Assembly (NCBI GenBank): GCA_021798985.1
Contig: JAJZBI010000006.1
Location: 74,716 to 138,715 of the forward strand
DNA: 64,000 bases
Direction: 5' to 3'
Origin: Actinomycetes bacterium
GTDB taxonomy: Bacteria; Actinomycetota; Acidimicrobiia; Acidimicrobiales; Bog-793
The number at the start of each line of letters is the position of its first letter. Positions within the stretch are counted from its first letter, which is position 1. Below, piece by piece: positions 2,156-38,310 of this stretch. A program made the translations under genes and the position numbers. The notes beneath the pieces were generated by a model. That model was given only the letters and a program-made list of their open reading frames with translations, did not search any database and was not told where the DNA came from.

Positions 2156-2190
2156 TTCTCATGACGCGCGGCTGGCGCTGACTCGAATGA

Positions 2191-3168: not shown

Positions 3169-3297
3169 GTTTCCCCCCAACTGTCGTGCAACCGATGCGC
3201 ATATGGGCCTGTGGAACGCCAATGCGCATCGTGCCTTGGGGGGCGAGGCTAATCGGTGGCGCGATAGGCTTTCAAGATGAGGGGGAAGGTTTCGGAT

Positions 3298-4344: not shown

Positions 4345-4345
4345 C

Positions 4346-5515: not shown

Positions 5516-5804
5516 GCAAGCGCACAATCTTGGTTGATGAGTCGTCCGGGTCGAGGCCGACAGCACGGTCGGGAGGAACACGTGAGAACCAATGGATCGG
5601 TGCAAATCGCAGTGACAGACGGTACCAGGAGCGCTCCGCTGCGTGGAGCAGTGCGCCCGCACTGGTAGCCCGAGGACCACTCGCTGGCGCATATGGAATC
5701 GGCATCGCCATTCGCGCAACAGAGCATCCAGCGTCGTGCTGGCCTATAGACCAGCCGACGGTGAGTAGCTGGCAAGGTGGATCGGTGAAGAAGGAGATCG
5801 GCTG

Positions 5805-7343: not shown

Positions 7344-8220
7344 AGCGGATTAGACCACGGGGTCGGTGGCGCAGAGGGATGCATAGCTGGTTGACGATCC
7401 AGGGCGAGCTCAGGGTCGCCTTCGGGCGTGTGCGTGCGTGAAACGTCACGCGCGGAGGAGCGCGATGTATGGCGGGCTCCGAAGCACCCAACCCGGCGCT
7501 GCGGACTCCGCGCGGGTCTGCCGGAATCCTGGTGGCCGAGCGGCGCAATCAAGACCCGCACAAGGGCGCTCGATGGTTCGCCAGTCGACTCGGTGAAGCT
7601 CGTGAATGATCGCGCGCGGTCGGCGTAGAAGGCCAAAGTGAACATCTGCCGCGAGCCGGGTGTGCGGGACGAGCTCGTCCGGGGGGGAGAGCTCTTCGGA
7701 TGGGGCTCGGCCGCAATGAGCGTGTTTGGCGCTCGGGGCAATCGCGCGGAACGAGATAGACATCGCCGTGATCGTCGATGTGCTGAACCGTTCACGTGAG
7801 GAGGGATCCGCATCTCTGGCGAGGCGAGGGTCGTTGGCCCAGCGCTCCGACGGTCCTTGCGCGGTGATGAGTGCGATCTACCCGCGCGTCTTGCTGTCGT
7901 TGGCGATGGTCAGCTGGTGGCGTCCATGCGACGACCGAGCGGGCCATTGTGTTCCTGGCAACACGGTGCGAATGGATGCGATGTCAGTCGCGAGCGCAGC
8001 GTGATATTGCGTCGTTGCACCTTGACATGACGAGGCGAGCGGGCGGACAATGAGGCAGGTTCGCGGTGGAGCAATGGGCTTCAGATATGCGAAACCAGTC
8101 GCGGCTCGTCTCTAGCGGCGGCGCGACAAGTCGCCGCGGTAGCGAAGGCCGCTCAAGCGGCTGTTCGGGGAGAGATGGGTTCTGACGTATCGCGGTGATG
8201 TCCCGCGAGAGAGGACGACA

Positions 8221-10182: not shown

Positions 10183-10623
10183 GTCCAGGCGGAATGTGTG
10201 CTGTGTGGCTCATCCGCCATGATTCGGTCTTCGCGTGCCCTGGTTGGCGACGAGAGACGCTAATGATCACGATCATGAGATGAGATGCCCGGAAGGCGGC
10301 CGGTTGAGGGACCAAGGAGATCGCAGGCCGGCGTTGGTGGCGGCCTCGCGAATCCACCCTCGCCGGTGGGCTGCTGAGTGGAGGCGCACGCGAAAGCGCA
10401 GGAGTGCGGCGTCCGACATCTCAGGCGCGACGAGCTCGCGCAGAGCTGGGCGCCGGGGAGTTACCAAGCGTGTTGCGCTGCAGAGCCAGGGGGTGTGCGG
10501 TCCAGCAGGGGTGCCCCGCCACACGGCGCGGTCGCCCGGGAAGGTTTACGGATGCGCGCGTGCGCGCGAGTGGGTGTCGTGTCGTTACGTCGGGCATCGC
10601 AAAGCACCCGTATGGGGGAGGAG

Positions 10624-13323
10624 ATGGGGCACGTGAGGTTCATAGCCAAACGAGGTAGCGATCGGCTAAGGGCTGGCTTTAAATATGGCAAGGCAGCGGG
10701 GATCATTCTCGTTGGTGTGCTGGCTGGCGGCGTTGCGTCCGTCCCGATCGCCGCGGAGGCAAGCGCCGCTGGTGGTACTGCGTATTACGTGGACAACAGT
10801 GCGGGTGCGAACTGCAGTGACGCGAACCCGGGCACGTCAGCATCACAGCCATGGTGCGACTTCGCGCCGATCAATGCGATCTCTGCCGGCAGAGGGTTCT
10901 CTCCAGGCGACTCCATCAATCTTCGGTCTGGTGATACCTGGACAGGCCAGGAGATGACGCTCAGCGGCACCGGGACCTCTGCGAACTGGATCACCGTGAC
11001 CTCCTATGGATCCGGTAGTCGACCGTCGATCGTTGGTGAGGGAGCCGGTACGGCATCGATTGACGTGCTCGTCACGAATCCTGACTATTGGCAGTTCAAC
11101 AACCTCTCGGTCAGCCAGGCGGGTGAGGGAATCATGGCCTGGTTCTCGACCGGCGATCACCAGGGATTGCGATTTACGAATATTTCATCGAGCGGCATCG
11201 GTGGAACCAATATCAATGGACCGTTCGGGCCGCACACGCCCATTTACACCACGTACCACGTGACGCGGTCGTCGGCGATCGAGGTCGCCTCGTATGCCAC
11301 GTTCTCGCCGACGCAGTACGTCGATGAGAACATTCTGCTCTCGGATGTGTCGGGGATTGGCAACCAGGACACGGTATCCTTCCAATATCAAAATCCCGAT
11401 GCGACGGCGGGAGAGAATCCGTCCTTTTCTCCACCGGGTGACACGGCCTACAGCAATGTTACGGTCCGTGGTCTCGACCTACAGAACGGCGCGCAGAATC
11501 TCGCGAATGGAACGAGCGACGCCATTGACATATCAAACATCACGAATGGAACCGTCGTCGATTCAACGATCAACGATCAGTGCGCGTCGCATACGCGTAC
11601 CGGGACGGCGGCGGTGTTTACTGCACGTGATGTCAATGTGAACTTTGTCAACGACTCGATTACCAATGTTCCAAATACTGGTTCGTCGGATCAAACCGGA
11701 TTTGACTTTGAGAATACAAATGACCAGACCAACATTGTGAACAGCTACATCGGTGGCAATGCCGGTGCGGGTGTGGAAGTGCTCTCCATCCATGGTGGCG
11801 CGACCGAAAGCACTAATGTCGGTCTCTCGGGTAACCTGTTTGTCGACAATGGGGCGATATCGAACGGTTGCCGGGGAAGCATCTGCCAACTCGACTTGAA
11901 CCACACCGATTTGCCGACGGGTACGGTCAGCGACAATCTCTACGACGAGCCGAACGGGTTCCTCAGTACCGCTGGGACCGGGTCGTGGAGCGATTTCGCG
12001 ATTTCGAACAACGCAGCCGCCACGTCGGTCGCCAACGCCGGTTATGACTTCAGCGGCAACCAAGGCGGGTCGAACTGGTACTACCAGTCCAGCACGGATG
12101 GGAGCACCTGGACCTCGTTTCCCCAGAGTGACTACGTGAGCTCACTGAACCGCTGGAGTGATGGCGCGAGCGCGATTGGTCCGTACACGATGTTCGCCGG
12201 CGAGGGCGAGGTTGCGGCACGAACCTGGGTCGCGCCATCGAGCGGGGTGATCAACATCCGGGGAAGGGTGCTCAACCCTGCTGGTACCGATCAGGGCAAC
12301 GGCCTCGTCAGCACCGCGGGCGATCCTCTGGAGGTTCGGATCACGGAGAACGGTCGAACGATCTGGCCGACGGGCCAACGCCCTGCGGCGACGCCCGCGT
12401 CGACCCCGATCAGCACGCCCGGACGTTGGCAGACGGTTCAGGGCGCGAATTCGATCGGCGTGATCGCAAATGTCGACAATATCTCGGTGCAAAAGGGCGA
12501 CCAGTTGCGGTTCGAGGTGGCTCAGGTCGCGGGTGACCAGAACACGCCAGCAGCCGACACCATCAGCTGGGATCCCTCGATCGGCTATGTCGGTGCACCG
12601 GTCTCTAAGAGCTTCGCGGTTACGAGCGGCGGCAGCTACGGGGTTCACTTCTCAGCAGAGATTGGCCCCGGTCCATTTGTTGCGTCAATCGATGGCACCC
12701 GGGTCGGAACGTTTCAGTCGACGTCGGGTACCTACGCGTCCTACAACACGATGCCGACGAGCCTGACGGCCGGCACCCACACGCTCGAACTGCAGGAATT
12801 GACGCCGAGCACCAATACGGGGTTGATCAGCGAAGTCAATGCCATCGGAGTCAACACTCTGTTAGATGGGGATTTCGCAGCTCCAAATGTCAGCGGTACG
12901 CCCAGTGGGTATGCGTATGATCCCGCGGGAACGGCGTGGAACTACGCCGGACCGGCCGGGGTAGTGAAGCAATACGACAGACCGTGGGGAACGCCGGCAG
13001 CCCCAAGCGGGACGCAGATGGCACTGCTGCAACACGACGGAGCGATGAGCCAAAGCGTGGACTTCACCAGTGGCGGGAGCTACGTCGTTCAGTTCCAGTC
13101 GGCGATGCGAACCACGAGCGGTGGTCGGCAGACCTTCGAGGTGCTCGTCGACGGCCAAAGTGTAGGGAGCTTCTCGCCATCGTCAGGAAGATTCACGTCC
13201 TACGCCACAAGCGTGTTCAAGTTGAGCGCGGGTAGCCACACGATCGAGTTCGTGGGTACGTCATCGGGCGACGATACTGACTTCATCGGTGCGGTCGCCT
13301 TGGCACCGAGCTCACCGTCATGA
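10624..13323 (+). CDS. Exported beta-helix protein with two C-terminal carbohydrate-binding-module-like repeats
   Basis: Signal-anchor AAGIILVGVLAGGVASVPIAAEASAAGG, then YYVDNSAGANCSD and beta-helix-like repeats. The C-terminus carries duplicated SGGSYxVxF...G(T/S)HT(L/I)E domains. The start is uncertain (ATG 10612, ATG 10624 or GTG 10633, near GGGGGAGGAG). Confidence 0.75.
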   Translation: MGHVRFIAKRGSDRLRAGFKYGKAAGIILVGVLAGGVASVPIAAEASAAGGTAYYVDNSAGANCSDANPGTSASQPWCDFAPINAISAGRGFSPGDSINLRSGDTWTGQEMTLSGTGTSANWITVTSYGSGSRPSIVGEGAGTASIDVLVTNPDYWQFNNLSVSQAGEGIMAWFSTGDHQGLRFTNISSSGIGGTNINGPFGPHTPIYTTYHVTRSSAIEVASYATFSPTQYVDENILLSDVSGIGNQDTVSFQYQNPDATAGENPSFSPPGDTAYSNVTVRGLDLQNGAQNLANGTSDAIDISNITNGTVVDSTINDQCASHTRTGTAAVFTARDVNVNFVNDSITNVPNTGSSDQTGFDFENTNDQTNIVNSYIGGNAGAGVEVLSIHGGATESTNVGLSGNLFVDNGAISNGCRGSICQLDLNHTDLPTGTVSDNLYDEPNGFLSTAGTGSWSDFAISNNAAATSVANAGYDFSGNQGGSNWYYQSSTDGSTWTSFPQSDYVSSLNRWSDGASAIGPYTMFAGEGEVAARTWVAPSSGVINIRGRVLNPAGTDQGNGLVSTAGDPLEVRITENGRTIWPTGQRPAATPASTPISTPGRWQTVQGANSIGVIANVDNISVQKGDQLRFEVAQVAGDQNTPAADTISWDPSIGYVGAPVSKSFAVTSGGSYGVHFSAEIGPGPFVASIDGTRVGTFQSTSGTYASYNTMPTSLTAGTHTLELQELTPSTNTGLISEVNAIGVNTLLDGDFAAPNVSGTPSGYAYDPAGTAWNYAGPAGVVKQYDRPWGTPAAPSGTQMALLQHDGAMSQSVDFTSGGSYVVQFQSAMRTTSGGRQTFEVLVDGQSVGSFSPSSGRFTSYATSVFKLSAGSHTIEFVGTSSGDDTDFIGAVALAPSSPS

Positions 13324-17726: not shown

Positions 17727-23625
<5,899 letters not shown>

Positions 23626-26153: not shown

Positions 26154-27737
26154 TCAGACCTTGGCGGGTGCCGAGATCCCGAGCCGCTTGCCGGACAGGT
26201 CGAGCCCGGCGACGGCGACGTAGGACGCACCAGGGTGCACGGTGATCGCGGTCTCGAACCCGGCCTTGGGGACGACGGCGACCGGCTCGAGCGACTTCGC
26301 GCTGCTGCCAGCGAGGACCTGCCAGTAGGCGACGTTCGTGGCGCCGTTCCAGCTGACGTAGGCGGCGTACCCGCCGATGGCGTCCTGGTCCACGACCAGT
26401 TGGGGCGGACTTGCTGGGGTGCCGGTCCATTCGTAGCGAAAGGCGCGGTAGGACTGGTCGTTCGTCGGGAAGCGCACGTCGTAGATGAGGTTGCCATTCG
26501 GGTCGAACTCACTCGAGTATGGCTCGGTGCCCCAGCCCACGAACGCGTTCCCGTTCGCCAGCATCTGGATGCTGCCCTCGTAGTAGGTGAGCAGCTTGGC
26601 TGGGTGCGTGTAGGCCTTGGTCAGGCTCACCTTCTTGGCGCTCTCGTCGACCGCCAGCACGAGCGCCCTCGACTGGGGCTCTTCTGCGGGCGTGGCCGCG
26701 TCGTCAAACACTGTGATGCCGTTGTTGTAGCGCCGCACGTGGTGCTGCCATTCGAAGTTCGCCCCCTTTTCGATGGCGAAGTTGGAGCGCTTGCCGCCGA
26801 GGCGCCAGATGATGGCGCCGCTGCGGCGATCGATGCGGTAGACCGTCCAGGTGTTGCGCGCCGAGACCAAGAGGCTGTTGTCGTCCCACAGCGCAACGGA
26901 GTTGATGTGGAAGTAGTCGACGGGGGAATCCCCGGTAGCCTTGGTGTACGAATCGGTCACCGGCACGTGATCGAGGCTGTTCCATTGGAAGAGCACCTTG
27001 CCCGTCGCGATGTCGATCTCTTGGATGACGCCCTCGAAGACCGATCCGTTCTTCGGGCCGCCGATCGCCGAGACGTCCGTGGCGGACTTGCGGTAGGCGG
27101 TGACGAGCGCCGTGTTCTGCGGCGTCAGCGTCAGCTCGTGCAGGTCGACCTCAAGGCCGTTGCCGGCCTTGATCGTGGCGATGGTCTGGTACTGATGGTC
27201 GAGCAGGTAGCCCTTGCCATAGCCCATGCCGTTGACGATCTGGCCGTTCCAGAACGTAAGCACCGGCTGGCCCCGGTAGCTCTGGACCTGGAGGTTCGTC
27301 GCCAACTCGGTGGTCGGCTGGAACCAGATCACCTCGCCCCGGTTGTTGGCGATCATTACCCCCATCTGCCCTTTGCCCTTGGCCACGGCCTGGGCCTGGG
27401 AGAGCCCCCGCACCCCGGGCAGCAGGCTTGGTGTCAGCATCACGAGGCCGGACGCGGTGCCGGCGTCGAGGTCGACGACTTGAAGGCGCGGCGGGATGAG
27501 CCCGGGGCGTGTCTTGAAGTCACCCTCCGGCGGGGTCGCCGGTGCCGAGCTCTGCTCGTGGCTGGCATTCGAGCTGCCGATGCGAATGCCGCCGAAGGCG
27601 GAGCCGGCGAGCGCGGCGATGCCGATCGCCCCACCACCTCCGCTCAATAAGAGCCTGCGCCGGCTGATCGTGTGTCGATTGCCCGATTGGGCAGGAACAT
27701 CTTGGACATTGTCATCTGAAACGGACGGACCCGCCAT
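26154..27737 (-). CDS. Arylsulfotransferase (ASST)-like beta-propeller protein with twin-arginine signal
   Basis: The Tat-like SRRRLLLSGGGGAIGIAALAGSAFG is followed by YRGQPVLTFWNGQ, QEIDIATGKVLFQWNSLDHVP and DYFHINSV. Confidence 0.8.
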   Translation of the reverse strand: MAGPSVSDDNVQDVPAQSGNRHTISRRRLLLSGGGGAIGIAALAGSAFGGIRIGSSNASHEQSSAPATPPEGDFKTRPGLIPPRLQVVDLDAGTASGLVMLTPSLLPGVRGLSQAQAVAKGKGQMGVMIANNRGEVIWFQPTTELATNLQVQSYRGQPVLTFWNGQIVNGMGYGKGYLLDHQYQTIATIKAGNGLEVDLHELTLTPQNTALVTAYRKSATDVSAIGGPKNGSVFEGVIQEIDIATGKVLFQWNSLDHVPVTDSYTKATGDSPVDYFHINSVALWDDNSLLVSARNTWTVYRIDRRSGAIIWRLGGKRSNFAIEKGANFEWQHHVRRYNNGITVFDDAATPAEEPQSRALVLAVDESAKKVSLTKAYTHPAKLLTYYEGSIQMLANGNAFVGWGTEPYSSEFDPNGNLIYDVRFPTNDQSYRAFRYEWTGTPASPPQLVVDQDAIGGYAAYVSWNGATNVAYWQVLAGSSAKSLEPVAVVPKAGFETAITVHPGASYVAVAGLDLSGKRLGISAPAKV

Positions 27738-27892: not shown

Positions 27893-29836
27893 ATGAGCCG
27901 CAAGCAAGAGGGCGCCGGCGGGGGGCGGGTGCCTGACCCCTTAAAACGCCGGATCGAGCGACGTCGCCAGTTCATTCGCCGGCGGATCGCGGTCGGCACG
28001 AGCGCCGCGTTGGTCGTAGCGGCGACGATGTTCGCCGTCAACCTGCGAGGTGGCGAGACGACGGCGAGCCGCAGCGCGATCCAGCTCACCGACGCCCAAC
28101 GCGGCCTCGTGTCGCCGGTCGCGATGCCCGGCGCTTCACTGCCCCAGGTGCCGGCGGGCGCCGTGACCGTGTCGCCCGAGCCGAACAGCCGGACGGCCGA
28201 CCCGCGCACCCAGATCAGCGTGCTCGGCGCGCCGTTGTCGGCATTGACCAACATCACCGTCACGGGCTCAAAGAGCGGCGTGCACCAGGGTCACTGGGAG
28301 GCCTACAAGAGCGCGACCGGCGCTAGCTTCCTTCCCAGCCGGCCCTTTGTGCCCGGTGAGACCGTGACGGTGAAGACGAACCTCACGATCGTCGGCTCGA
28401 ACAACGGCACCTATCAGTTCCAAGTGGCACACGTCTTGCATCTAACTGGCGATCTCACTGTGCCCGCCTCGCACACCAACGTCGCCGGCGTCCAGCACTT
28501 CGCCACGCAGCCGGCGATGTTGCCTCCCGCCATCACGGTCGCGAAGAGCGACTCCTCCCTCGGCCCGGACGAGTCGTTCCTGCTCTCGCCCAAAGGCGAC
28601 GTCGGCCAGCCCGGTCCGATGATCGTGGCACCCGACGGCTCGCTCATCTGGTTCGACAACCTCGCGAAGACCGGCCAGCTCGCCTTCGACCTGAACGAGC
28701 AGCGCTACCACGGCCAGCCCGTGCTCACCTGGTTCCAGGGCCAGGTGCGCTACGGCCACGGCGAAGGTGAAGGCATCATCATGAACGACCGCTACCAGGT
28801 GATCGCCAAGGTGCACGCCGGCAACGGGGTCCAGATGGACTTGCACGAGTTCCAGCTCACCTCGGCGGGACAGGCCTACATCACCGCCTACCGCACGGTC
28901 CGCTGGAACCTGTCGAGCATCGGCGGCCCGGCCAATGCCACCGTCTTTGACGGTGTGATGCAGGAGATCGACGTCGCGACGGGCCTCGTGATGGACGAGT
29001 GGGACAGCCTCGACCACGTTCCGACGACCGCCTCGTACTACGGCAAGCCACCGACGTCGAGCTATGAGTACGACTACTTCCACATCAACAGCATCCAGCC
29101 GCTGGCGGGGGGCGATTTGTTGATCGGGGCGCGCAACACCAGTGCCGCCTACGAGGTCGACCCGGCCGACGACGGTGCGGTGGTGTTCCAGCTCGGCGGC
29201 AAGACGCCGAGCGTCCCGATGCAGACCGGTTCGTTCTTCTGGTTCCAACACGACGTTCAGCTCCATGGCGGAGGCGTCTTCACCGTCTTTGACGACGGTG
29301 CCGCCCCGCCGCGCGAGCCGAGCTCTCGGGCGCTGTTCTTGCGCCTCAGCACCTCGGCCAAGCAGATCCAGTACCTGGGGGCCGACACGCACCCCGGCGT
29401 GCTCGCCTACGCGCTCGGCAACGTCCAAGAGCTCCCGCACGGCAGCGTCGAGGTCGGGTGGGGGACGGCGCCCTACTACTCGATCTATTCCTCGAGCGGA
29501 GCGCTCTTGTATGACGCGGCGATGCCCCAGGGCGACGACTCCTACCGCGCCTATCTCGACCGCTGGCAGGCCCAGCCCGAGACCAAGCCGACGATCGCGG
29601 TGGCGAACCTCGGCGGCAGTACGAGCGTGCGGGTCAGCTGGAACGGCGCGACCCAGGTGCACGCCTGGCGGCTGCTCGCCGGCCCGAGCCCGAACCGGCT
29701 CGGCCTCGTCACGACCGTGCCGAAGACCGGCTTCGAGACGGCGATCAGCGTGCCCAGGCACCCGGCGTATCTCCGGGTGGAAGCGGTCAACGGGGCCGGC
29801 CAGGTGATCGGCGGCTCGCTGCCGCACGCTGGCTGA
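27893..29836 (+). CDS. Arylsulfotransferase (ASST)-like beta-propeller protein with N-terminal anchor and extra N-terminal domain
   Basis: Basic/hydrophobic N-terminus RRRQFIRRRIAVGTSAALVVAATMFAV. Paralogous motifs YHGQPVLTWFQGQ, QEIDVATGLVMDEWDSLDHVP and DYFHINSI. Confidence 0.8.
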   Translation: MSRKQEGAGGGRVPDPLKRRIERRRQFIRRRIAVGTSAALVVAATMFAVNLRGGETTASRSAIQLTDAQRGLVSPVAMPGASLPQVPAGAVTVSPEPNSRTADPRTQISVLGAPLSALTNITVTGSKSGVHQGHWEAYKSATGASFLPSRPFVPGETVTVKTNLTIVGSNNGTYQFQVAHVLHLTGDLTVPASHTNVAGVQHFATQPAMLPPAITVAKSDSSLGPDESFLLSPKGDVGQPGPMIVAPDGSLIWFDNLAKTGQLAFDLNEQRYHGQPVLTWFQGQVRYGHGEGEGIIMNDRYQVIAKVHAGNGVQMDLHEFQLTSAGQAYITAYRTVRWNLSSIGGPANATVFDGVMQEIDVATGLVMDEWDSLDHVPTTASYYGKPPTSSYEYDYFHINSIQPLAGGDLLIGARNTSAAYEVDPADDGAVVFQLGGKTPSVPMQTGSFFWFQHDVQLHGGGVFTVFDDGAAPPREPSSRALFLRLSTSAKQIQYLGADTHPGVLAYALGNVQELPHGSVEVGWGTAPYYSIYSSSGALLYDAAMPQGDDSYRAYLDRWQAQPETKPTIAVANLGGSTSVRVSWNGATQVHAWRLLAGPSPNRLGLVTTVPKTGFETAISVPRHPAYLRVEAVNGAGQVIGGSLPHAG

Positions 29837-29868
29837 ACCAGCTGGCCTCCTGACGGGCGAGGCGGACC

Positions 29869-30792
29869 TCAGCGCGCGGCTGGCGAGTCGATCGCCCGTG
29901 CCGTGGCGCGCAGGAACGCCCGCAGCGCCCGGCGCGCGCGGCGCTCGAGCTCGCTGCGGCCGACGGCCTCCCGGGTGGACAGGGCGCGAAAGGTCCCCTC
30001 GACGGCGATCGCACAGCGTTCGGAGTCGATCGGGCCCACGGTGAGCGTGCCTTCGAGGCGGAGGGTCTCAATGTCGGTGAGCACCTCGGCCTCGAGGCGA
30101 TAGCGCCGGCTCGAAGCCTGCGCCGCACCTTTGGTCGCTCCGGCGCGGGCAAGGCGCGCCGCGACCGCTGGCACCGAGTCGTCGTCGCGAGCGCGCCGCC
30201 GGCCCGGGGCAGCCGCCAAGAAGGCCGGCACGGCGAGGGCGCCGAGCTCGCCCCGCAGCGAGCGCAGGCGCCGGTCGGCGAGCTCGAGGGGCGCCTCGAC
30301 CTCGACCCGGTCGGTGACAAGCACCTCGGTCGGCCGGGCCCGGTGCGAGTCCCCCTCGAAATGGTAGGTGCCGGCCTCGATCGCCGCGTCTCGCGCGGCG
30401 ACCTCGGCGAGGCTGGTTCGTGCCAACAGCTCGCGCAATGCCCCGGTCATCTCGAGCCACGTCTCGTGCAGCGGACACACCGCGTCCCAGCGGCACGGGC
30501 CCTCGCCGAGCGCGCAGCGCTCAGCGTGCAAGGTGCCCTCGGCTGCCTCGATCACCTCGAGCACGCTGATCTCCTCGGGCGAGCGGATGAGGCGGTAGCC
30601 GCCGTCGCGGCCGGCCCGCGACGACGCGAGCCCGGCGCGCACCAGGTCCGCCAGGATCTGGGAGGCGAACGTGGCCGGGATGGTGGTCTCGGCGACGACT
30701 TCACGGATCTTGCGCTGCTCTCCAGAGGCAAAGGCCCGCGCCAAGGTGATCGCCGAACGCATCACGTAGTCGCCGCGCCGCGACAAGGTCAT
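29869..30792 (-). CDS. Rrf2-family transcriptional regulator with Cys triad and a C-terminal extension of about 160 aa
   Basis: MTLSRRGDYVMRSAITLA...IPATFASQILADLVRAGL is a winged helix. The Cys triad is C-x6-C-x5-C (CALGEGPCRWDAVC). The 421-aa ORF was trimmed to ATG 30792. Confidence 0.8.
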   Translation of the reverse strand: MTLSRRGDYVMRSAITLARAFASGEQRKIREVVAETTIPATFASQILADLVRAGLASSRAGRDGGYRLIRSPEEISVLEVIEAAEGTLHAERCALGEGPCRWDAVCPLHETWLEMTGALRELLARTSLAEVAARDAAIEAGTYHFEGDSHRARPTEVLVTDRVEVEAPLELADRRLRSLRGELGALAVPAFLAAAPGRRRARDDDSVPAVAARLARAGATKGAAQASSRRYRLEAEVLTDIETLRLEGTLTVGPIDSERCAIAVEGTFRALSTREAVGRSELERRARRALRAFLRATARAIDSPAAR

Positions 30793-31112
30793 GTCCACCG
30801 GCCGAGCCACCTCCTCGGGCGTGCATGGTATCGGGGCCGGAGCCATCGCCCAGAGGGCGAGCGCACCCCGACGCCGAGCGCAGCCAGGCTGGCGCGCCGC
30901 CTGCCAGCTGGCCGCGTGGTGAGCGCGCGCATTAAGGTCAAGTCCGCAGCTTGAGGTAGAGAGGAGCGGGCCATGCACCACCACAGCGCGACCAGCCGGC
31001 GCCAGCGGCACGTGGCGGACCGCGCCCATCACGACGCTCGACCCCACTGCGCGCTGGCCGAGGTGCTGGTGCCGCTTCGGCAGCGATCGCAATCCGATCA
31101 GCGGGCCAAGGC

Positions 31113-32402
31113 GTGCAGGGCGCGAGAGGCGCACGGGTGAGCAACGCTGCAGCGCAGCGCGCCCGCGCGCTCGAGCGCCGCCGGCGCGCCCGGCGGATCG
31201 GCCACCTCCGCCTCGCCGGGCTCATCGTCCTCGTCACCCTGGCGATCGTGCTGCCGTTCGCGCTCAGCTCGCCGGCACCGGCCCGAGCGGTGAAGCAGGC
31301 GGGCGCGCTTGGGGGCGAGCGGACAGCGAAGGCGGCCGTGGCCGCTGCAGCGCGCCACCGGACGATCAGACCTGGCCCGAACCTCGCGCCGGGATCGAAC
31401 CCTTCAGTCCTTCCGGGCCCGGTGCTCGTCGCCGACGAGGAGAACAACCGGCTCTTGTTGATCTCCCCGAGCGGATCGATCCTTTGGCGCTTCCCCGGGG
31501 CGCATTCTCTTGCCCCCAATCAGAGCTTCTTGTCGCCAGACGACGCCTTCTTCACGCCATCGGGCAAGCAGATCATCGCGACCGAGGAGAACGATCAGGT
31601 CGTCTCGCTCATCCAGCGCCAGCCGTCGCACATCCTGTGGCGCTACGGCACGCCGGGGGTGCCCGGTGCTGGCCCGAACCACGTGGACAACCCCGATGAC
31701 GCGATGGTCATCCCCGGGCACCACGTGCTCGTCGCGGACATCAAGAACTGCTCGCTGCTGCTCCTCACACCGCCGAGCCACGTGGCGACGATGCGGATCG
31801 GACAGAACGACACGAGCTGTCTGCACCAACCCCCGCTGCGCTTCGGGAGCCCGAACGGCGCGTTCCCCATGACCAACGGCCACTACCTGATCACCGAGAT
31901 CAACGGGGACTGGGTCGACGAGATGACGTTGTCGGGCAAGGTGCTCTGGTCGACGCACCCGCCGGGCGTGGCGTACCCGAGCGACACGAACGAGGTGTCG
32001 CCGGGCGTCTACCTCACGGTCGACTACTCGACGCCCGGCCAGATCGTGGAGTTCAACCAACAGGGCAAGCTGCTGTGGCGCTACGGGCCCACGAGCGGCC
32101 CGGGGATGCTGTCGCATCCCTCGCTGTGCGAGCCGATCCCGACCAATGGGGACATCTTGTGCAACGACGACGGCAACGACCGGGTGATCGTGGTCGATCC
32201 GCACACCAAGACCATCGTCTGGCAGTACGGCCACACAGGCGTCTCGGGCAGCGCGCCCGGTTACCTCGCCGGACCCGATGGCGTCGACCTCGCCCCTCCG
32301 TATTCGATGCTGGTCCGCCACGCCCCGAGCATGGGCGCACCGCCGGCGTCGTGCCCCTCCTCGCTCCCAGCGGGTGCGTGCAGCGGTCCGGGTGCGGGGT
32401 GA
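31113..32402 (+). CDS. Membrane-anchored/exported beta-propeller repeat protein (ASST/NHL-like blades)
   Basis: Anchor LRLAGLIVLVTLAIVLPFALSS. About six repeats ending in (I/L)LWR(F/Y)G-type strands (SILWRFPG, HILWRYGTPG, KVLWSTHPPG, KLLWRYGP, TIVWQYGHTG). An in-frame GTG at 31137 after GAGAGG is an alternative start. Confidence 0.65.
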   Translation: MQGARGARVSNAAAQRARALERRRRARRIGHLRLAGLIVLVTLAIVLPFALSSPAPARAVKQAGALGGERTAKAAVAAAARHRTIRPGPNLAPGSNPSVLPGPVLVADEENNRLLLISPSGSILWRFPGAHSLAPNQSFLSPDDAFFTPSGKQIIATEENDQVVSLIQRQPSHILWRYGTPGVPGAGPNHVDNPDDAMVIPGHHVLVADIKNCSLLLLTPPSHVATMRIGQNDTSCLHQPPLRFGSPNGAFPMTNGHYLITEINGDWVDEMTLSGKVLWSTHPPGVAYPSDTNEVSPGVYLTVDYSTPGQIVEFNQQGKLLWRYGPTSGPGMLSHPSLCEPIPTNGDILCNDDGNDRVIVVDPHTKTIVWQYGHTGVSGSAPGYLAGPDGVDLAPPYSMLVRHAPSMGAPPASCPSSLPAGACSGPGAG

Positions 32403-32472
32403 GCGCGTGGCGCTGACTCGAACCGCAGGCGACCCGGGCGCGTGGCCGGGATGGAACGAGGCAAAGGGAGCA

Positions 32473-33693
32473 ATGGAAGAGATCCACGAGCACGGGCCGA
32501 GAGTCGGCCAGCATGCACCGGGAGGCTCGGCGTCGACCGGGGTGCGCCAGGTGCGCTTCCCGCTGGGTGCGCGGCCCTTCCTCGTGCTCATCGAGCTGAC
32601 GCGAGCGTGCGCGCTCGCGTGCGCGCACTGCCGCGCCGAGGCGATCGACACACCCGAGCCCGACGAGCTCTCGACTGCCGAGCTGCTCGCGCTCTTCGCG
32701 GATCTCGCATCCCTCGGCAGTCCGAGGCCCCATGTGGTCCTGTCCGGTGGCGATCCGCTTCGCCGTGGCGACCTGGATCAGCTCGTGGCCGCGGCGGCGA
32801 GCCACCATCTGGCCGTCGCCGTCTCCCCGGCGGGGACGCCGCTCGCCTCGAGCGAGCGGCTCGCTGCCCTGCGCGCCGCGGGCGCCGGTGCGGTCTCGTT
32901 CTCCCTGGACGGCGCGAGCGCGCTGACCCATGACGGCTTTCGCCGGGTCGCGGGCTCCTTTGCCTGGACGCTTGCGGGATGCGAGGCGGCCAAAGCCGCC
33001 GGGCTGCGCCTGCAGATCAACACGACCGTGTGCGAAGAGACGGTTGGCTCGCTGCCCGACATCGCCCGGCTCGTCGACGCGCTCGGTGCCAATCTGTGGA
33101 GCGTCTTCTTCTTGATCCCCGTGGGGCGCGGCGAGGCGCTCTCGCCGCTTTGTGCGAGCGATGCCGAAGACGTGTACGCCTTCCTCGCCGACCTCGCCGG
33201 GGTGATGGCACTGAAGACCACCGAGGCTCCCGCCTATCGCCGCGTCGTGCACGATCGTCTGGCGGGGAAGCGACGGGTAGGCGGACGGCGCTATCACGAG
33301 CTGTGGGAGCAGCTGCGCGCGACGTGGCCCGAAGGCGCGGCGCGCATCAAGGCGAGCCACGCGGTGGCGCCAGCGTCGCGGCGCGCGCCGCTGGCGGTTG
33401 GAGACGGCCGGGGCGTGGTCTTCGTCTCGCGCACCGGCGAGGTCTTCCCGAGCGGCTTCTTGCCGCTGCGCGCCGGGAGCATCCGAGAGCGCCGCCTCTC
33501 GGAGCTCTACACCAGCTCCCCGCTGCTTCGCGCGCTGCGCGATCCGGATCGACTCGGTGGGCGCTGCGGGCGCTGTGAGCTGCGCGAGCTGTGTGGTGGA
33601 TCGCGGGCGCTCGCCTACGCGGTTTCCGGCGATGCCTTCGGCGAGGATCCGTCGTGCAGCTATGAGCCCGCCCTCGTCGCCTCGGGGGCGTGA
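32473..33693 (+). CDS. Radical SAM enzyme with C-terminal SPASM/twitch-like Cys-rich domain
   Basis: LTRACALACAHC (C-x3-C-x2-C) lies near the N-terminus, with C-terminal CGRCELRELCGGSRALAY...DPSCSY. ATG 32473 follows AAGGGAG. The longer ORF from 32278 would overlap the upstream gene. Confidence 0.85.
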   Translation: MEEIHEHGPRVGQHAPGGSASTGVRQVRFPLGARPFLVLIELTRACALACAHCRAEAIDTPEPDELSTAELLALFADLASLGSPRPHVVLSGGDPLRRGDLDQLVAAAASHHLAVAVSPAGTPLASSERLAALRAAGAGAVSFSLDGASALTHDGFRRVAGSFAWTLAGCEAAKAAGLRLQINTTVCEETVGSLPDIARLVDALGANLWSVFFLIPVGRGEALSPLCASDAEDVYAFLADLAGVMALKTTEAPAYRRVVHDRLAGKRRVGGRRYHELWEQLRATWPEGAARIKASHAVAPASRRAPLAVGDGRGVVFVSRTGEVFPSGFLPLRAGSIRERRLSELYTSSPLLRALRDPDRLGGRCGRCELRELCGGSRALAYAVSGDAFGEDPSCSYEPALVASGA

Positions 33694-33699
33694 GCGGCG

Positions 33700-35259
33700 A
33701 TGCGCATCCACCTCGTCGAGCCCGCTCCTGCTGGCCACAACGTCTATGACCTCTCGCGCCTGCCACGCCTCGGCCTGCCGCTGATGGGGACCCTGCTCGA
33801 GCAGCAAGGTCACGACGTACGCGTCTCGGCTGAGGTGCTCGCCCCCGTCGACCTCGAGCGCTGCCTGCACGCCGACCTCGTCGGCATCTCGGCGACCACC
33901 GCCACCGCCCCGTCGGCCTATCGCCTCGCCGACCTGCTCGCCGAGGCGGGGGTGCCGGTCGTGCTCGGCGGCCCCCACGTCAGTTTCTGTGCGACCGAGG
34001 CGCTCGAGCACGCGCCCTTCGTCGTGCGCGGCGAGGGTCAAGAGACGATCCTCGAGCTCGTCGCGCGTCTTGAGGGCCACGGCGACCTCACCCAGGTGAG
34101 CGGGCTGTCGCGTCGCGGCGAGGACGGCGAGGTGGTGCACCACCCCGACCGGCCGCGCTGCAACCAGGCCGACTTCGAGCGCCTGCCTGCGCCGCGCCTG
34201 TCGCTCATCGACGGGCACCGGGCGATGTCGACCATGCCGGTGATGACGCAGTGGGGGTGTCCCTTTGACTGCGAGTTCTGCTCGGTGAGCGCCCAGTTCT
34301 CCCGCCGCGTCCGGCACCGTCGCGCCGATCAGGTGGTCGAGGAGCTGCGCGACCTCGAGGCGTCGCGGGTCTTCTTCTACGACGACAACTTCGTCGTGAA
34401 CAAGGCGCGCGCGACCACGTTGCTGCGCGCCATGCTCGAGGCCGACGTGCAGGTGCCGTTCTTCGCCCAGATGCGGGCGCAGGTGGCGCTGCGCAACGGT
34501 GCGGAGCGCCAGGCCGACGACGAGTTCTTGGCCTTGCTCGCCCGCGCGGGCGCCGAGATGGTCATGTTGGGCATCGAGACGATCACCGACGAGGCGCTGG
34601 CGGAGATCAACAAGCGCCAGAGCGTCGAGACCGTTGTGCGCGCGATCGGGGCGTTCCATCGCCACAAGATCGCGGTGCACGGGATGTTCGTCGCCGGCCT
34701 CGACGTCGACGACGCGAGAAGCGCCGAAGCGGCCGCGGACTTCGCCCGGCGCATCGGCATCGACACCTTCCAGCTGATGGTGGAGACCCCGCTTCCGGGC
34801 ACGCGGCTGTGGGAGCGCGTCGTCGCCGAAGAGCGGGTCTTTGCCGAGGACTGGTCGCTCTTTGACGGTCACCACGTGGTGATGCAACCGGCACAGATGA
34901 CCCCGCTCACGCTCCAGCTCTCGGTGCTGGCGGCGATGCGGCGCTTTTACTCCTGGCCGAGGATCGCCGCCTCGGGCCTTGCCACGGCGCTCGCGCATCT
35001 GCCCGACCTCGTCGGGGTGACCAACGCGAAGACGTTGTCGATGCTGCCCAAGCTCGCCCGCGCCGCCCGGGCACGGCGCTATGAGGAGGTGCCCGTCTTG
35101 TTGCGCGCCGCGGTGCCCGAGCGGGCGCTCGGCCGACTGACCGGTGCCTTCTGGCTGCCGGCACTGCGGCTGTACGCGCGGCTGCAGCTGCGTGCCCTGC
35201 AGGCCCAGCCGGCGACGCGTGCCCACCTCGCTGCGCTGGCGGCCCTGGAGGCCCGATGA
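33700..35259 (+). CDS. B12-binding-domain radical SAM protein (class B rSAM-like)
   Basis: N-terminal Rossmann-like B12-binding region (DLVGISATTATAPSAYRLADLLAEAGVPVVLGGPH), then GCPFDCEFCSV (C-x3-C-x2-C). Confidence 0.85.
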   Translation: MRIHLVEPAPAGHNVYDLSRLPRLGLPLMGTLLEQQGHDVRVSAEVLAPVDLERCLHADLVGISATTATAPSAYRLADLLAEAGVPVVLGGPHVSFCATEALEHAPFVVRGEGQETILELVARLEGHGDLTQVSGLSRRGEDGEVVHHPDRPRCNQADFERLPAPRLSLIDGHRAMSTMPVMTQWGCPFDCEFCSVSAQFSRRVRHRRADQVVEELRDLEASRVFFYDDNFVVNKARATTLLRAMLEADVQVPFFAQMRAQVALRNGAERQADDEFLALLARAGAEMVMLGIETITDEALAEINKRQSVETVVRAIGAFHRHKIAVHGMFVAGLDVDDARSAEAAADFARRIGIDTFQLMVETPLPGTRLWERVVAEERVFAEDWSLFDGHHVVMQPAQMTPLTLQLSVLAAMRRFYSWPRIAASGLATALAHLPDLVGVTNAKTLSMLPKLARAARARRYEEVPVLLRAAVPERALGRLTGAFWLPALRLYARLQLRALQAQPATRAHLAALAALEAR

Positions 35260-36236
35260 GCCCGGCGCACAGGGCGCCGCTTGCGTCGCGCGTCGGCGCG
35301 CTCGCCGTACTGTTCGCGACCGGCTCGCTCGTCTTGTTGGGGAGCACGGTGCGAGTCACCGAGTCGGGCATGGGGTGTTCGAGCTGGCCGTTGTGCAACG
35401 GTCAGATCGGGCCGATCGCGCAGTTCCACCCGCTGCTCGAGCAGTCGCATCGCTACCTCGCGGCGCTCGTCTCGATCGGCGTCGTGGTGCTGTATGTGGC
35501 CGCCCGCCGGAGCGGACCACTGGCGTTCCGGCGCTGGACGGCGGTCGGCACCGCCACGATCGTCCTCCAGGTGCCGCTCGGCGCCTTGACGGTCTTTGCC
35601 CACAACGCCCCGCCGACCGTGGCCGCCCATCTGCTCGGCGGCCTCGTGCTGCTCGCCGCGACGGCGCTCGCCGCGGCGGCGAGCTTCGGACTGCTCGACG
35701 ACCGAGCGTGGCGCCTTCGCACGCTGGACGCCGTCGCGATCGCGATGACGGCGCTCCTGCTCGTGTCGGGCACCGTGGTCGCCGACGGCGGGGCCGCGGG
35801 GGTGTGCCCGAGCTGGCCCTGGTGCGCCGCGCATCCGGGGGCTCCTTGGCATCTCGTCACCTTGCAGCTCGTCCATCGCACCATGGCGGGGCTGACCGCG
35901 CTCGTGCTCCTCGCCGCGGCCGGCGCCCGCCTGCGCGGCTCGGCGTGCCCGAAGAGCGAGCGGCGGCTGTGCTGGGGCCTCGTGGCGCTGCTCGGTGCCC
36001 AGGTCGCCGCCGGTGCGCTCGACACCTTGCTGCGGGCACCGGACGCGCTCCAAGACGTCCACATCGGCCTCGCCGGGGCGCTGTGGTGTCTCGCCGCGAT
36101 CATCTTCGTCGGGCGCGCGGGCGCGCCGATCACGGCGCCGCTACCAGACGACCAGGCGGCGCTCGGTGCGCCCGGCACCGAATCGCTGCGGAGCGGAGCG
36201 CTCACGAGCTCGGGGTCGCGCACCACCGCGCGCTGA
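35256..36236 (+). CDS. ctaA: Heme A synthase (COX15/CtaA family)
   Basis: VRVTESGMGCSSWPLCNGQ...EQSHRY, with a second half CPSWPWC...LVHR. Multiple TM segments. ATGA overlap with the upstream gene. Confidence 0.85.
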   Translation: MSPAHRAPLASRVGALAVLFATGSLVLLGSTVRVTESGMGCSSWPLCNGQIGPIAQFHPLLEQSHRYLAALVSIGVVVLYVAARRSGPLAFRRWTAVGTATIVLQVPLGALTVFAHNAPPTVAAHLLGGLVLLAATALAAAASFGLLDDRAWRLRTLDAVAIAMTALLLVSGTVVADGGAAGVCPSWPWCAAHPGAPWHLVTLQLVHRTMAGLTALVLLAAAGARLRGSACPKSERRLCWGLVALLGAQVAAGALDTLLRAPDALQDVHIGLAGALWCLAAIIFVGRAGAPITAPLPDDQAALGAPGTESLRSGALTSSGSRTTAR

Positions 36237-36289
36237 GGCCGAGTCGCGTCCCCCCCGCGCGCCAGCCCACCGGCCGCTAGCCTTCGCCG

Positions 36290-37735
36290 ATGTTTCGCTC
36301 CCGAGCGGCCCGTGCCGTGCTGAGCGCGGCGATCGCCGCCGTGGTCCTGTTCGCCATGGCGGCATCGGCCCCCGCCCAGCGCACGAGCCGGCACGCGCCG
36401 CGCGGCGGCATCCACAAGATTCGCCACATCATCATCATCATCCAGGAGAACCGCTCCTTCGACTCCTACTTCGGGACCTATCCCGGAGCCGTCGGGATCC
36501 CGATGCGCAACGGCACGCCGAGCGTCTGCTCTCCCGACCCGGCAACGGGCGCGTGCGTCGCGCCCTATGTCGACCACGCCGACCGCAACGGCGGCGGCCC
36601 GCACGACTCGGCCAACAGTGGGCCGGACATCGCCGGGGGAAAGATGAACGGCTTTGTCGCCCAGGCCCTGCGGGGCCGGCACCACTGCGCGGACCCGACC
36701 AATCCCGCCTGCGTGCACAGCGCGAGCCCGGACGTGATGGGCTACCACGTGCAAAGCGACATCCCGAACTACTGGGCCTGGGCGCGCAACTACGTGCTCC
36801 AAGACCATCTTTTCGAGTCGGTCCACTCCTGGAGCTTCCCCTCGCACCTGTACTTCGTCTCGGGCTGGTCGGCAAACTGCGCGACGTCCAACCCGATGAG
36901 CTGTCGCAGCTCGGTCGACCCGAAGAACCGCTCGATCGCCCGACCGACCCCGTTCTCGTGGACCGACATCACCTACCTCTTGCACCGCCACCACGTCAGC
37001 TGGGCGTGGTATCTCGACCACGGCGCCGCGCCCTCGCTCCACCTGTTCCGGCGCCGCGGCACGCTGACGGAGACCTTCGTGCCCGGCGTGCCGAAGATCT
37101 GGAACGTCCTGCCCGGCTTCGTCGACGTCCACCAGGACCACCAGACCGGCAACATCCAGAACGAAGGGGACTTCTTCCGCCACGCCCGCGCCGGCACGCT
37201 GCCGGCCGTCTCCTGGCTGCTGCCCGACGGCCCCGATAGCGAGCACCCCCCGGCGCTCGTGAGCACGGGGGAGTCCTACGTCACGCGCCTCGTCGACGCC
37301 GTGATGTCCTCCAAGGACTGGAAGTCGAGCGCGATCTTCATCACCTGGGACGACTGGGGCGGCTTTTACGACAACGTCGTGCCGCCAAAGGTTGACGCCC
37401 TCGGCTTTGGCATCCGGGTGCCGGGACTCGTCATTAGCCCCTACGCCAAGGCCGGCTTTGTCGACCACCAGACGCTCTCGTTCGACTCCTACCTCCGCTT
37501 CATCGAGAACGACTTCCTCGGCGGCCAGAGCCTGAACCCGAAGACCGACGGGCGCCCCGATTCCCGCCCAGACGTCCGTGAGACCCAGAAGATCCTCGGC
37601 TCGCTCGTCAAGGACTTCAACTTCCACCAAAAGCCACGCCCGCCGCTGTTGCTCGCGCCGTGCCCGAAGACCACGCTGACGGGCGTGCCGTCCCCCGCGC
37701 CGAACTGCTCGCTGCCGCCCGGGGTGCGGGGCTAG
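36290..37735 (+). CDS. Secreted phosphoesterase-family protein (phospholipase C / AcpA acid-phosphatase type)
   Basis: Signal peptide AVLSAAIAAVVLFAMAASAPA, then IRHIIIIIQENRSFDSYFGTYPG and ITWDDWGGFYD motifs. Confidence 0.85.
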   Translation: MFRSRAARAVLSAAIAAVVLFAMAASAPAQRTSRHAPRGGIHKIRHIIIIIQENRSFDSYFGTYPGAVGIPMRNGTPSVCSPDPATGACVAPYVDHADRNGGGPHDSANSGPDIAGGKMNGFVAQALRGRHHCADPTNPACVHSASPDVMGYHVQSDIPNYWAWARNYVLQDHLFESVHSWSFPSHLYFVSGWSANCATSNPMSCRSSVDPKNRSIARPTPFSWTDITYLLHRHHVSWAWYLDHGAAPSLHLFRRRGTLTETFVPGVPKIWNVLPGFVDVHQDHQTGNIQNEGDFFRHARAGTLPAVSWLLPDGPDSEHPPALVSTGESYVTRLVDAVMSSKDWKSSAIFITWDDWGGFYDNVVPPKVDALGFGIRVPGLVISPYAKAGFVDHQTLSFDSYLRFIENDFLGGQSLNPKTDGRPDSRPDVRETQKILGSLVKDFNFHQKPRPPLLLAPCPKTTLTGVPSPAPNCSLPPGVRG

Positions 37736-38310
37736 CAGCTGGCGTCGAGCCCCAAGAGCGCGAAGGCGGCGATCGTCCCCGCATCGACGATCTCGCCGGC
37801 TTGGATCATCGCCGTCACCTCGGCATCGGAAAAGAAGGCCTGGACCATGTCCTGCTCGCTCGGCTCGCGCGCGGGCGGCCCGGGCACGAGCCCGGTGGCG
37901 AGGAAGATGTCGATCGCCTGGGCGGAGAAGCCGTAGGCGGGGTAGAGGTGGCCGAGCTGGCGCAGCTCGGTGGCGGAAAAGCCGGTCTCCTCGCGCAGCT
38001 CGGCGGCGGCGAGCGCCGCCTGATCGCCCTGCGGCGGCCCGCTCCACGAGCCTTGGGGGAACTCCCAAGCCCGTCGATTCGGAACGTAGCGGTACTGCTC
38101 GACGAGCCAGACGCCGCCGGCCTCCCGGGGCATCACGAGGGCGAAGTCGGGCTTCTCGACGACGCCGTAGAGGGTGCCGACGCCGTCGCTTCGCACGATG
38201 CGGTCCTCGCGCACCCGCATCCAGGGGTTCTCATAGACGAGGCGGCTCGAGAGCCGCCGGGGCGCCCCCGCCACGGTCTTGGGACCAGCTCCGCTTGGCG
38301 TCGTGCTCAT
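37732..38310 (-). CDS. NUDIX hydrolase (ADP-ribose pyrophosphatase-like)
   Basis: Nudix box GDQAALAAAELREETGF, with LVYENPWMRVRED at the N-terminus. Trimmed to ATG 38310, which overlaps the upstream stop. Confidence 0.8.
   Translation of the reverse strand: MSTTPSGAGPKTVAGAPRRLSSRLVYENPWMRVREDRIVRSDGVGTLYGVVEKPDFALVMPREAGGVWLVEQYRYVPNRRAWEFPQGSWSGPPQGDQAALAAAELREETGFSATELRQLGHLYPAYGFSAQAIDIFLATGLVPGPPAREPSEQDMVQAFFSDAEVTAMIQAGEIVDAGTIAAFALLGLDASC

Follow-up and report, generated by a model that had tools for sequence, protein, structure and literature searches.

A proposed lineage-specific Acidimicrobiia operon in which two radical SAM genes adjoin a heme A synthase gene next to a divergent Rrf2 regulator

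What could bring two radical S-adenosylmethionine (rSAM) enzymes of different types into one run of genes with a heme A synthase? The question is raised by a 64,000-nt stretch of Acidimicrobiia DNA (contig JAJZBI010000006.1; the whole stretch is called the window here), in which a gene for an Rrf2-family regulator lies divergent from genes for a beta-propeller protein, a SPASM-type rSAM enzyme, an rSAM enzyme with a B12-binding domain (B12-rSAM) and the heme A synthase CtaA, followed by a phosphoesterase gene. A preliminary description of the sequence had proposed a tetrapyrrole-modifying or other cofactor- or lipid-tailoring pathway outside canonical heme A synthesis. Part of that proposal holds, in that the first rSAM protein falls in a tetrapyrrole clade and the linkage recurs in other genomes, and part does not, in that the first rSAM protein and CtaA belong to known enzyme families. 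We favor, at a probability of about one half, a lineage-specific Acidimicrobiia operon that bundles heme-cofactor enzymes under an Fe-S Rrf2-type sensor, probably for low-oxygen conditions.

Gene order and junctions were confirmed from the open reading frame (ORF) table and the junction sequences. Genes called independently on the 149-kb contig DAHVUF010000002.1 (metagenome-assembled genome [MAG] GCA_027357925.1) formed an identical set, so that the layout in the preliminary description is borne out. Family matches across the operon were to PF02082, PF04055, PF02310 with PF04055, PF02628, PF04185 and TIGR04053, and the features are as follows.

29869-30792, minus strand: Rrf2-family regulator, 307 aa (PF02082, TIGR00738)
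30793-31112, no strand: divergent intergenic spacer, 320 nt, presumed regulatory region
31113-32402, plus strand: membrane-anchored NHL-type beta-propeller, 429 or 421 aa (profile search, PQQ_2)
32473-33693, plus strand: TIGR04053 rSAM/SPASM protein (CALACAHC; C-x2-C-x5-C...C)
33700-35259, plus strand: B12-binding-domain rSAM protein, 519 aa (PF02310 and PF04055; CPFDCEFC)
35256-36236, plus strand: heme A synthase CtaA, COX15/CtaA family, two-Cys-pair type (PF02628)
36290-37735, plus strand: secreted PF04185 phosphoesterase of the phospholipase C (PLC)/acid phosphatase family (PF04185, 221 bits)

The gene caller placed the propeller start at GTG 31137 and not at GTG 31113, which would lengthen the spacer to 344 nt. 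The propeller and first rSAM genes are separated by 70 nt, with a Shine-Dalgarno-like AAAGGGAG just 5′ of ATG 32473; the two rSAM genes are separated by 6 nt; and the B12-rSAM stop and CtaA start share an ATGA overlap of 4 nt (35256-35259). The preliminary description had noted no obvious precursor-peptide ORF in the 70-nt gap; no ORF of at least 20 aa lies wholly within it, and a search of the divergent spacer for small precursor ORFs found only shadow ORFs.

The first rSAM protein scored 424.7 bits against TIGR04053, above the family cut-off of 395, and is therefore a member of that family. The next-best NCBIfam scores were to AhbD (268 bits), NirJ (159), NirJ2 (156) and AhbC (136), each of them a family of enzymes that act on tetrapyrrole side chains, and the scores against peptide maturases were about 100 bits or less. 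The AhbD model proper, TIGR04545, has a cut-off of 500 bits that the window protein does not reach, and reference TIGR04053 members from Thermus, haloarchaea and Bacillus likewise fall short of it (343 to 373 bits) while scoring 482 to 522 bits against TIGR04053. Homologues from six related loci retrieved for comparison (L014, L019, L020, L025, L087 and L093) scored 415 to 469 bits on TIGR04053. In a seven-sequence alignment over four phyla that includes the Thermus, haloarchaeal and Bacillus members, C46, C50 and C53 as well as C365, C368, C374 and C395 were invariant, and the protein has both the CxxxCxxC motif of rSAM enzymes and C-terminal Cys ligands for one auxiliary cluster.

The contexts of TIGR04053 genes elsewhere were read from annotated plasmid and megaplasmid records. 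In the nic cluster of Thermus thermophilus, an Rrf2 gene is divergent from genes for a cytochrome c, a NorB-like protein, nitrite reductase, the TIGR04053 protein and a second cytochrome c, which places the family in a nirS/norCB context. The TIGR04053 gene of Thermus goes by the name nirJ, and its promoter is a target of NsrR, an Fe-S Rrf2 protein that binds there and activates it (PMC5748679). In Halogeometricum and Haloferax larsenii the neighbors are nirK, norB-like, DUF2249 and halocyanin genes. The ahbD gene of Haloferax volcanii, HVO_2144, shares that setting, lying between nirK, halocyanin and norB, and its deletion impairs only anaerobic growth, which protoheme rescues (PMC5746218). 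On plasmids of the Bacillus cereus group the neighbors are adhE, nrdD/nrdG and FprA. Reviews state that AhbD-like genes are found among Gram-positive bacteria of the coproporphyrin pathway, and a 2024 paper calls the O2-independent coproheme decarboxylase of such bacteria "yet unknown" (PMC10965808). Based on TIGR04053 membership and on synteny with the genetically tested haloarchaeal gene, we conclude that the first rSAM protein is most likely an AhbD-type O2-independent coproheme decarboxylase, that is, a heme b synthase. The AhbD/NirJ placement raised earlier is upheld by the NCBIfam scores, which put the protein in the tetrapyrrole clade, and the suggestion that this enzyme belongs to a new pathway is abandoned, as its family includes, by synteny, a tested haloarchaeal anaerobic heme synthase.

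The second heme enzyme of the operon is CtaA. The protein matched PF02628 at 96.2 bits (gathering cut-off, 29.9) and aligned with Bacillus subtilis CtaA (6A2J; E 2e-14). Residues C41, C47, H65, H125, C184, C190, H207 and H269 were invariant in 11 CtaA homologues, one of which is encoded beside Caa3_CtaG and one of which comes from the Mycobacteriales, and the protein has the four heme-ligand His residues in transmembrane segments (TM) 2, 4, 6 and 8 and the Cys pairs in extracytoplasmic loops that define type 1 CtaA. Because the key residues are conserved, we conclude that the window CtaA is, by its sequence, a canonical and ordinary heme A synthase. No ctaB or cox gene was found within the 64-kb window.

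Conservation of the linkage was assessed in 80 species-level loci around B12-rSAM homologues, of which 35, the window not counted, belong to the Acidimicrobiia clade (the 35 other loci) and 45 are from elsewhere. The loci come from Acidimicrobiia, Solirubrobacterales, a few Actinomycetes, Gaiellales/Thermoleophilia, Anaerolineae, Dormibacterota, Eremiobacterota, Bacillota and Spirochaetia. TIGR04053 adjoined the B12-rSAM gene in 7 of the 35 other Acidimicrobiia-clade loci, where the flanking genes make up at least four distinct contexts. Adjacent pairs were present in the window, L001, L093, L014, L019, L025, L026 and L030, with gaps of 2 to 21 nt in the seven cases with intact genes and of 276 nt in L030, where a frameshift is apparent. 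CtaA adjoined the B12-rSAM gene in L001, L002 and L020 among the same 35 loci, and wherever the B12-rSAM and CtaA genes met they overlapped or abutted, in six lineages (the window, L001, L093, L002, L020/L094 and L089, the last with a truncated B12-rSAM gene overlapping CtaA). The complete trio of TIGR04053, B12-rSAM and CtaA was present in L093 and was retained in L020, where the TIGR04053 gene is inverted and lies two genes from the B12-rSAM gene.

Operon composition was variable. L087/L088 have a divergent Rrf2 gene followed by propeller, TIGR04053 and CtaA genes with no B12-rSAM gene, and L092 has propeller and CtaA genes with neither rSAM gene, so that the compositions seen were propeller-CtaA, propeller-SPASM-CtaA, propeller-B12-rSAM-CtaA and all four. 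In a neighbor-joining tree of the B12-rSAM proteins, the cases with adjacent partners were spread over several branches. Because the SPASM-B12, B12-CtaA and SPASM-CtaA adjacencies each occur independently and in different flanks, the pattern argues for functional coupling. The preliminary description had raised conservation of the rSAM-rSAM-ctaA adjacency as a check on its proposal; the adjacency does recur beyond one contig, and it does so in Acidimicrobiia only, with TIGR04053 and CtaA homologues usually located elsewhere. Three other Acidimicrobiia TIGR04053 genes and two other CtaA genes had unrelated neighbors.

The Rrf2 protein matched PF02082 at 93.7 bits and TIGR00738 at 93.8 bits. A C-x6-C-x5-C-x2-H motif, which would supply putative Fe-S ligands, was read from the translation and is kept in the L175 homologue; with an N-terminal Rrf2 helix-turn-helix (HTH) and three close Cys residues after the dimerization helix, the protein is predicted to be of the Fe-S Rrf2 type. 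The C-terminal extension of about 170 aa (29869-30342) had no significant Pfam match, and the corresponding extension of the L175 protein (242-1186, minus strand) had a weak match to Polyketide_cyc2 (SRPBCC). The L175 match suggests a ligand-binding module.

Companions of the regulator were traced by tblastn with the window Rrf2 and its L175 homologue, and a long Rrf2 was found beside at least one of the propeller, SPASM and B12-rSAM genes in about nine loci and in three orientations. It is divergent from the propeller gene in the window, L087/88 and L097, upstream of the propeller gene in L098 and L101, upstream of the B12-rSAM gene in L015, and near a propeller-CtaA pair in L104; in L175 it is divergent from a lone B12-rSAM gene whose protein is only 54% identical. 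On L092, a contig shared with L104, a 476-aa Rrf2 fused to a receiver domain and a GerE HTH (3830-5260) is followed by a PAS/HisKA_3 kinase and then the propeller-CtaA pair. A candidate distant B12-CtaA pair, P0113/P0338, proved to be a coincidence, and its look-up gave the Rrf2/B12-rSAM pair of L175 instead. The long Rrf2 is the most constant companion of these genes, and this recurrence supports the earlier description of the operon as Rrf2 controlled, a claim for which the search for a conserved operator gave no match. Likewise, no sigma-70-like site was found in the divergent spacer, and scans for promoter and terminator consensus sequences did not rise above background. An Rfam scan of 29500-38000 found no family, cobalamin riboswitches included, at its gathering score.

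The B12-rSAM protein matched PF02310 (61.6 bits) and PF04055 (64.2 bits) and has the class B arrangement of an N-terminal B12 Rossmann domain followed by an rSAM barrel with CxxxCxxC, the Cys residues of which (C187, C191 and C194) were invariant in the homologue alignment. Scores against named families were below their cut-offs for BchE TIGR02026 (138.5 bits; cut-off 481), HpnR (120.5; cut-off 650) and HpnJ (103.9; cut-off 578), and with no NCBIfam cut-off reached, the profile scores place the protein in an unnamed family. Its closest solved relative by sequence is MgmA/QCMT, the methyl-coenzyme M reductase (MCR) glutamine methylase (PDB 9CCB; E 3e-18). An AlphaFold (AF2) model built from 14 homologues (pLDDT 87) has a Rossmann domain, a barrel and a helical C-terminal part, and a Foldseek search with that model returned AprD4 at the top, followed by MgmA (9CCB), OxsB, TsrM and CysS, at E values of about 1e-22. 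AprD4 has the same domain, yet a review sets it apart from cobalamin users (PMC12931638). Because AprD4 shares the domain and is grouped apart, the model supports cobalamin use by the B12-rSAM protein only as likely.

The family is large, with 1,770 proteins at E ≤1e-10 among the scored candidates, and ranges over Acidimicrobiia, Solirubrobacterales, Anaerolineae, Gaiellales (anaerobic-digester MAGs included), Spirochaetia and Bacillota. A plasmid search with the window protein gave only 25 to 30% identical matches. ORF clustering of the 80 loci found no universal neighbor and, shadow ORFs aside, nothing common to more than 11 loci; the 45 loci of Solirubrobacterales, Anaerolineae, Gaiellales and others had no conserved B12-rSAM neighbor. 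The neighbors that were seen include Lon protease in Anaerolineae, a two-component system and ParA-FtsZ in Gaiellales, DegV, and acyl-CoA dehydrogenases, and we conclude that across the 80 loci the B12-rSAM gene mostly stands alone.

Several arrangements of B12-rSAM genes were seen along the way. Two MAGs (L009/L010 and L007/L013) each carry two B12-rSAM paralogues on different tree branches. In two Solirubrobacterales loci, a different rSAM gene of about 500 aa (L036 7415-8905 and L037 10286-11815) lies beside the B12-rSAM gene, and its best NCBIfam matches, tetraether lipid synthase Tes and AhbD, were weak at about 50 bits. In five Acidimicrobiia loci (L003, L004, L006, L026 and L078), an anaerobic sulfatase-maturating enzyme gene (anSME; TIGR03942, 414 bits) is directly downstream of the B12-rSAM gene (approximately 10600-11900); L026 also has TIGR04053 upstream.

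The propeller protein has an Arg-rich N terminus, one TM segment and six conserved Cys residues and is six-bladed and of the NHL type. A profile of four propeller orthologues matched TRIM71 NHL domains at E 1e-11, the protein scored 29 bits against PQQ_2, and the orthologues in L002, L087 and L092 were 58 to 72% identical. A general propeller-CtaA module was considered and dropped; the family is widespread, and in a metagenome scan 80 propeller-anchored loci almost never carried CtaA or the rSAM genes. A 412-aa ORF upstream of TIGR04053 in L085 was rejected as a propeller homologue. Soil-metagenome homologues (L108-L170, e.g., L136 751-2781) mostly form the C-terminal half of two-propeller (Kelch and NHL) proteins of about 700 aa, the genes of which adjoin acyl-CoA synthetase or GntR genes.

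Under the reading that we favor, the operon would be a single transcription unit controlled by the Rrf2 sensor. The TIGR04053 enzyme would supply heme b under conditions that close the H2O2/O2-dependent route, and the heme A made by CtaA would go to an A-type oxidase whose genes lie elsewhere. The Cys3 motif and ligand-binding-like C-terminal domain of the Rrf2 protein fit a regulator that would probably switch the operon with oxygen, nitric oxide (NO) or redox state, a role proposed because of the conserved linkage and the precedent of NsrR and nirJ in Thermus. The B12-rSAM gene would be cotranscribed with the genes of both heme enzymes, and probably coupled to them in translation, and its product would most likely act in the same low-oxygen program, possibly on heme or a porphyrin, and the NHL propeller would be an extracytoplasmic partner. 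A porphyrin substrate is favored because two heme enzymes flank the gene and because BchE ranks first, if weakly, among the similarities. A reaction on heme O or heme A is possible. The more specific proposal that the B12-rSAM enzyme is itself a heme modifier is improbable; its most attractive version is an O2-independent heme O C8-methyl oxidase, which by BchE-like chemistry with water-derived oxygen may act with CtaA, or instead of it, when O2 is scarce, and the other version is a heme C-methylase that would make an undescribed heme.

Several observations weigh against this account. All of the linkage comes from a single class, most genomes of which lack it: 28 of the 35 other Acidimicrobiia-clade loci lack TIGR04053 beside the B12-rSAM gene, and about 31 lack CtaA. 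Outside Acidimicrobiia the B12-rSAM gene sits in unrelated housekeeping contexts (e.g., Lon, FtsZ/ParA and DegV), and with so broad and context-free a distribution the family in its entirety is unlikely to be specific to heme A. Much of the linkage could be synteny inherited from one ancestral operon and now decaying. Nor is it obvious why a "low-oxygen" operon should contain CtaA, which requires O2. The window protein scores 425 bits on TIGR04053, below the reference members, and its predicted orthology to HVO_2144 draws on family score and the synteny of intermediates. Finally, comparison of the window and L087 spacers and an inverted-repeat search found no convincing operator, the Thermus palindrome not having been searched for.

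The same observations could be read as hitchhiking, in which four functionally unrelated housekeeping genes were joined once in an Acidimicrobiia ancestor and the substrate of the B12-rSAM enzyme (RNA, protein or a small metabolite) has nothing to do with heme, so that the operon would not stand for a pathway. The absence of a conserved B12-rSAM neighbor across the 80 loci is as expected from such an origin, as are the mostly unrelated contexts of TIGR04053, CtaA and propeller homologues, and adjacency in about 20% of loci at about 60% protein identity fits neutral decay. Nor does the ATGA junction, offered in the preliminary description as a sign of shared function, suffice by itself; overlaps of 4 nt are common in high-GC genomes. 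What makes inherited synteny somewhat unlikely as the full explanation is that the TIGR04053-B12 pair is kept with short gaps in at least four flanking contexts, that all three pairwise adjacencies exist separately, that L020 retains the trio despite inversion of the SPASM gene, that one Rrf2 regulator accompanies differing gene subsets in three orientations, and that the two partners are both heme enzymes.

A role in lipids is a weaker contender. The B12-rSAM enzyme would then C-methylate or rearrange a membrane lipid or isoprenoid, much as HpnR/HpnP or the B12-rSAM of ladderanes do, in a membrane-remodeling set with the phosphoesterase, or in a variant might act on the farnesyl tail of heme O or A. 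HpnR (120 bits), HpnJ (104) and the lipid-biosynthesis B12-rSAM family TIGR04072 (82) are indeed among the best NCBIfam matches, but all lie far under their cut-offs and BchE scores higher. The PLC-family phosphoesterase downstream in the window and L001, and DegV, a fatty acid-binding protein, upstream of the B12-rSAM gene in the L021/L024/L029/L045 clade, are linkages each limited to one small clade. An rSAM gene weakly like Tes/HpnH does adjoin the B12-rSAM gene in two Solirubrobacterales loci, but the window operon contains no lipid synthesis genes, and we regard lipid tailoring as distinctly unlikely. Least probable by far is maturation of a ribosomal peptide or of a protein (the propeller, CtaA or the product of an unannotated small ORF) by the SPASM- and B12-type enzymes together. 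The weak likeness of the first rSAM protein to MftC and PqqE (about 100 bits), the scores of the B12-rSAM protein against the methylases ApyD (80 bits) and TIGR03975 (42 bits) of ribosomally synthesized and posttranslationally modified peptides (RiPPs), and the anSME gene in five loci would fit such a role. Set against them, the first rSAM protein is above the TIGR04053 cut-off with tetrapyrrole relatives scoring two to three times as high as peptide maturases, neither the 70-nt gap nor the spacer holds the small ORF by which RiPP clusters are recognized, and operon variants drop one or both rSAM genes and keep the propeller and CtaA.

The gap between CtaA and the phosphoesterase gene is 53 nt, or 80 nt if the start at 36317 preferred by the gene caller is used. 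The phosphoesterase gene adjoins CtaA only in the window and L001, the closest relative, and is 4 kb away in L022; it is probably codirectional cargo and not a conserved member of the operon. Beyond it lie NUDIX, pyridoxal phosphate (PLP) enzyme, rlmN, mshD and his/trp genes, which mark an Actinomycetota core region. On the other side, immediately upstream of the Rrf2 gene and missing from related loci, are two divergent PF14269 arylsulfotransferase-like paralogues that are 42% identical (26154-27737, minus strand, and 27893-29836, plus strand). After a 1,660-aa hybrid histidine kinase (18643-23625, minus strand) with about nine HAMP repeats, GAF, HisKA/HATPase and receiver domains come a receiver-HATPase_c_2 protein and a GAF-SpoIIE phosphatase. 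Positions 1-13300 differ in composition, with a GC content of about 0.61 and a third-codon-position GC (GC3) of about 0.66 to 0.73, against a GC of 0.69 to 0.75 and a GC3 of about 0.85 to 0.95 in the rest of the window, and encode a zinc alcohol dehydrogenase, a sulfatase, a GH120-like beta-helix protein and a 981-aa ORF with no Pfam match. This block may be an acquired island or the result of a chimeric MAG assembly.

Parts of this picture are already known, namely the Rrf2-TIGR04053 logic from Thermus, the class of the first rSAM enzyme from haloarchaea, and an ordinary CtaA. What is new here is their joining with an orphan B12-rSAM gene and the variable composition of the operon in Acidimicrobiia. 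Literature searches on TIGR04053 and on rSAM enzymes together with heme A synthase gave no relevant paper. Many families of cobalamin-type rSAM enzymes are orphans, and one such family, with thousands of members, of soil and peat Actinomycetota and Chloroflexota that occurs repeatedly in an operon with two heme enzymes comes with a concrete substrate hypothesis. Moreover, the unnamed family TIGR04053 is tied to Thermus "NirJ" and to the AhbD of haloarchaea, which has been tested genetically, which suggests a name for a protein of many Gram-positive genomes. We know of no oxygen-independent route to heme A. If the B12-rSAM enzyme were a heme modifier, the operon would hold a full set of O2-independent replacements, AhbD type for ChdC and B12-rSAM for CtaA, under one Fe-S Rrf2 sensor; if its substrate were unrelated to heme, the locus would be an ordinary lineage-specific operon.

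Four known systems bear comparison. BchE, the cobalamin-dependent rSAM cyclase that acts anaerobically on Mg-protoporphyrin monomethyl ester, converts a methylene to a keto group and takes the oxygen from water. Among named families it gives the B12-rSAM protein its highest score, and the domain order is the same; by analogy with BchE and AcsF, the B12-rSAM enzyme could be to an O2-dependent tetrapyrrole oxidase what BchE is to AcsF, a counterpart that needs no O2. The score rules out a BchE orthologue, however (138 against 481 bits), HpnR and HpnJ score nearly as high, and the host is not a phototroph. The window CtaA shares with B. subtilis CtaA (6A2J) and actinobacterial COX15 the eight-TM two-half architecture, the four His residues and both Cys pairs, and differs in that its gene overlaps the B12-rSAM gene, for which translational coupling is predicted, and in that ctaB and cox are absent from the window. 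With haloarchaeal AhbD/TIGR04053, the first rSAM protein shares a score above the family cut-off, the CxxxCxxC motif and four C-terminal Cys residues in a family of anaerobic or denitrification contexts; it is only 39 to 47% identical to TIGR04053 reference members, falls below the TIGR04545 cut-off, and is encoded beside CtaA and the B12-rSAM gene and not beside nir or nor. Unlike the Thermus nic cluster (nirJ, norCBH and nirS), the window has no nir/nor genes, and its regulator is longer by a C-terminal 170 aa. The two loci share a gene for an Rrf2 protein of the Fe-S type beside a TIGR04053 gene among genes of heme-dependent respiration, and in Thermus the control of the TIGR04053 gene by the Rrf2 protein NsrR is experimental.

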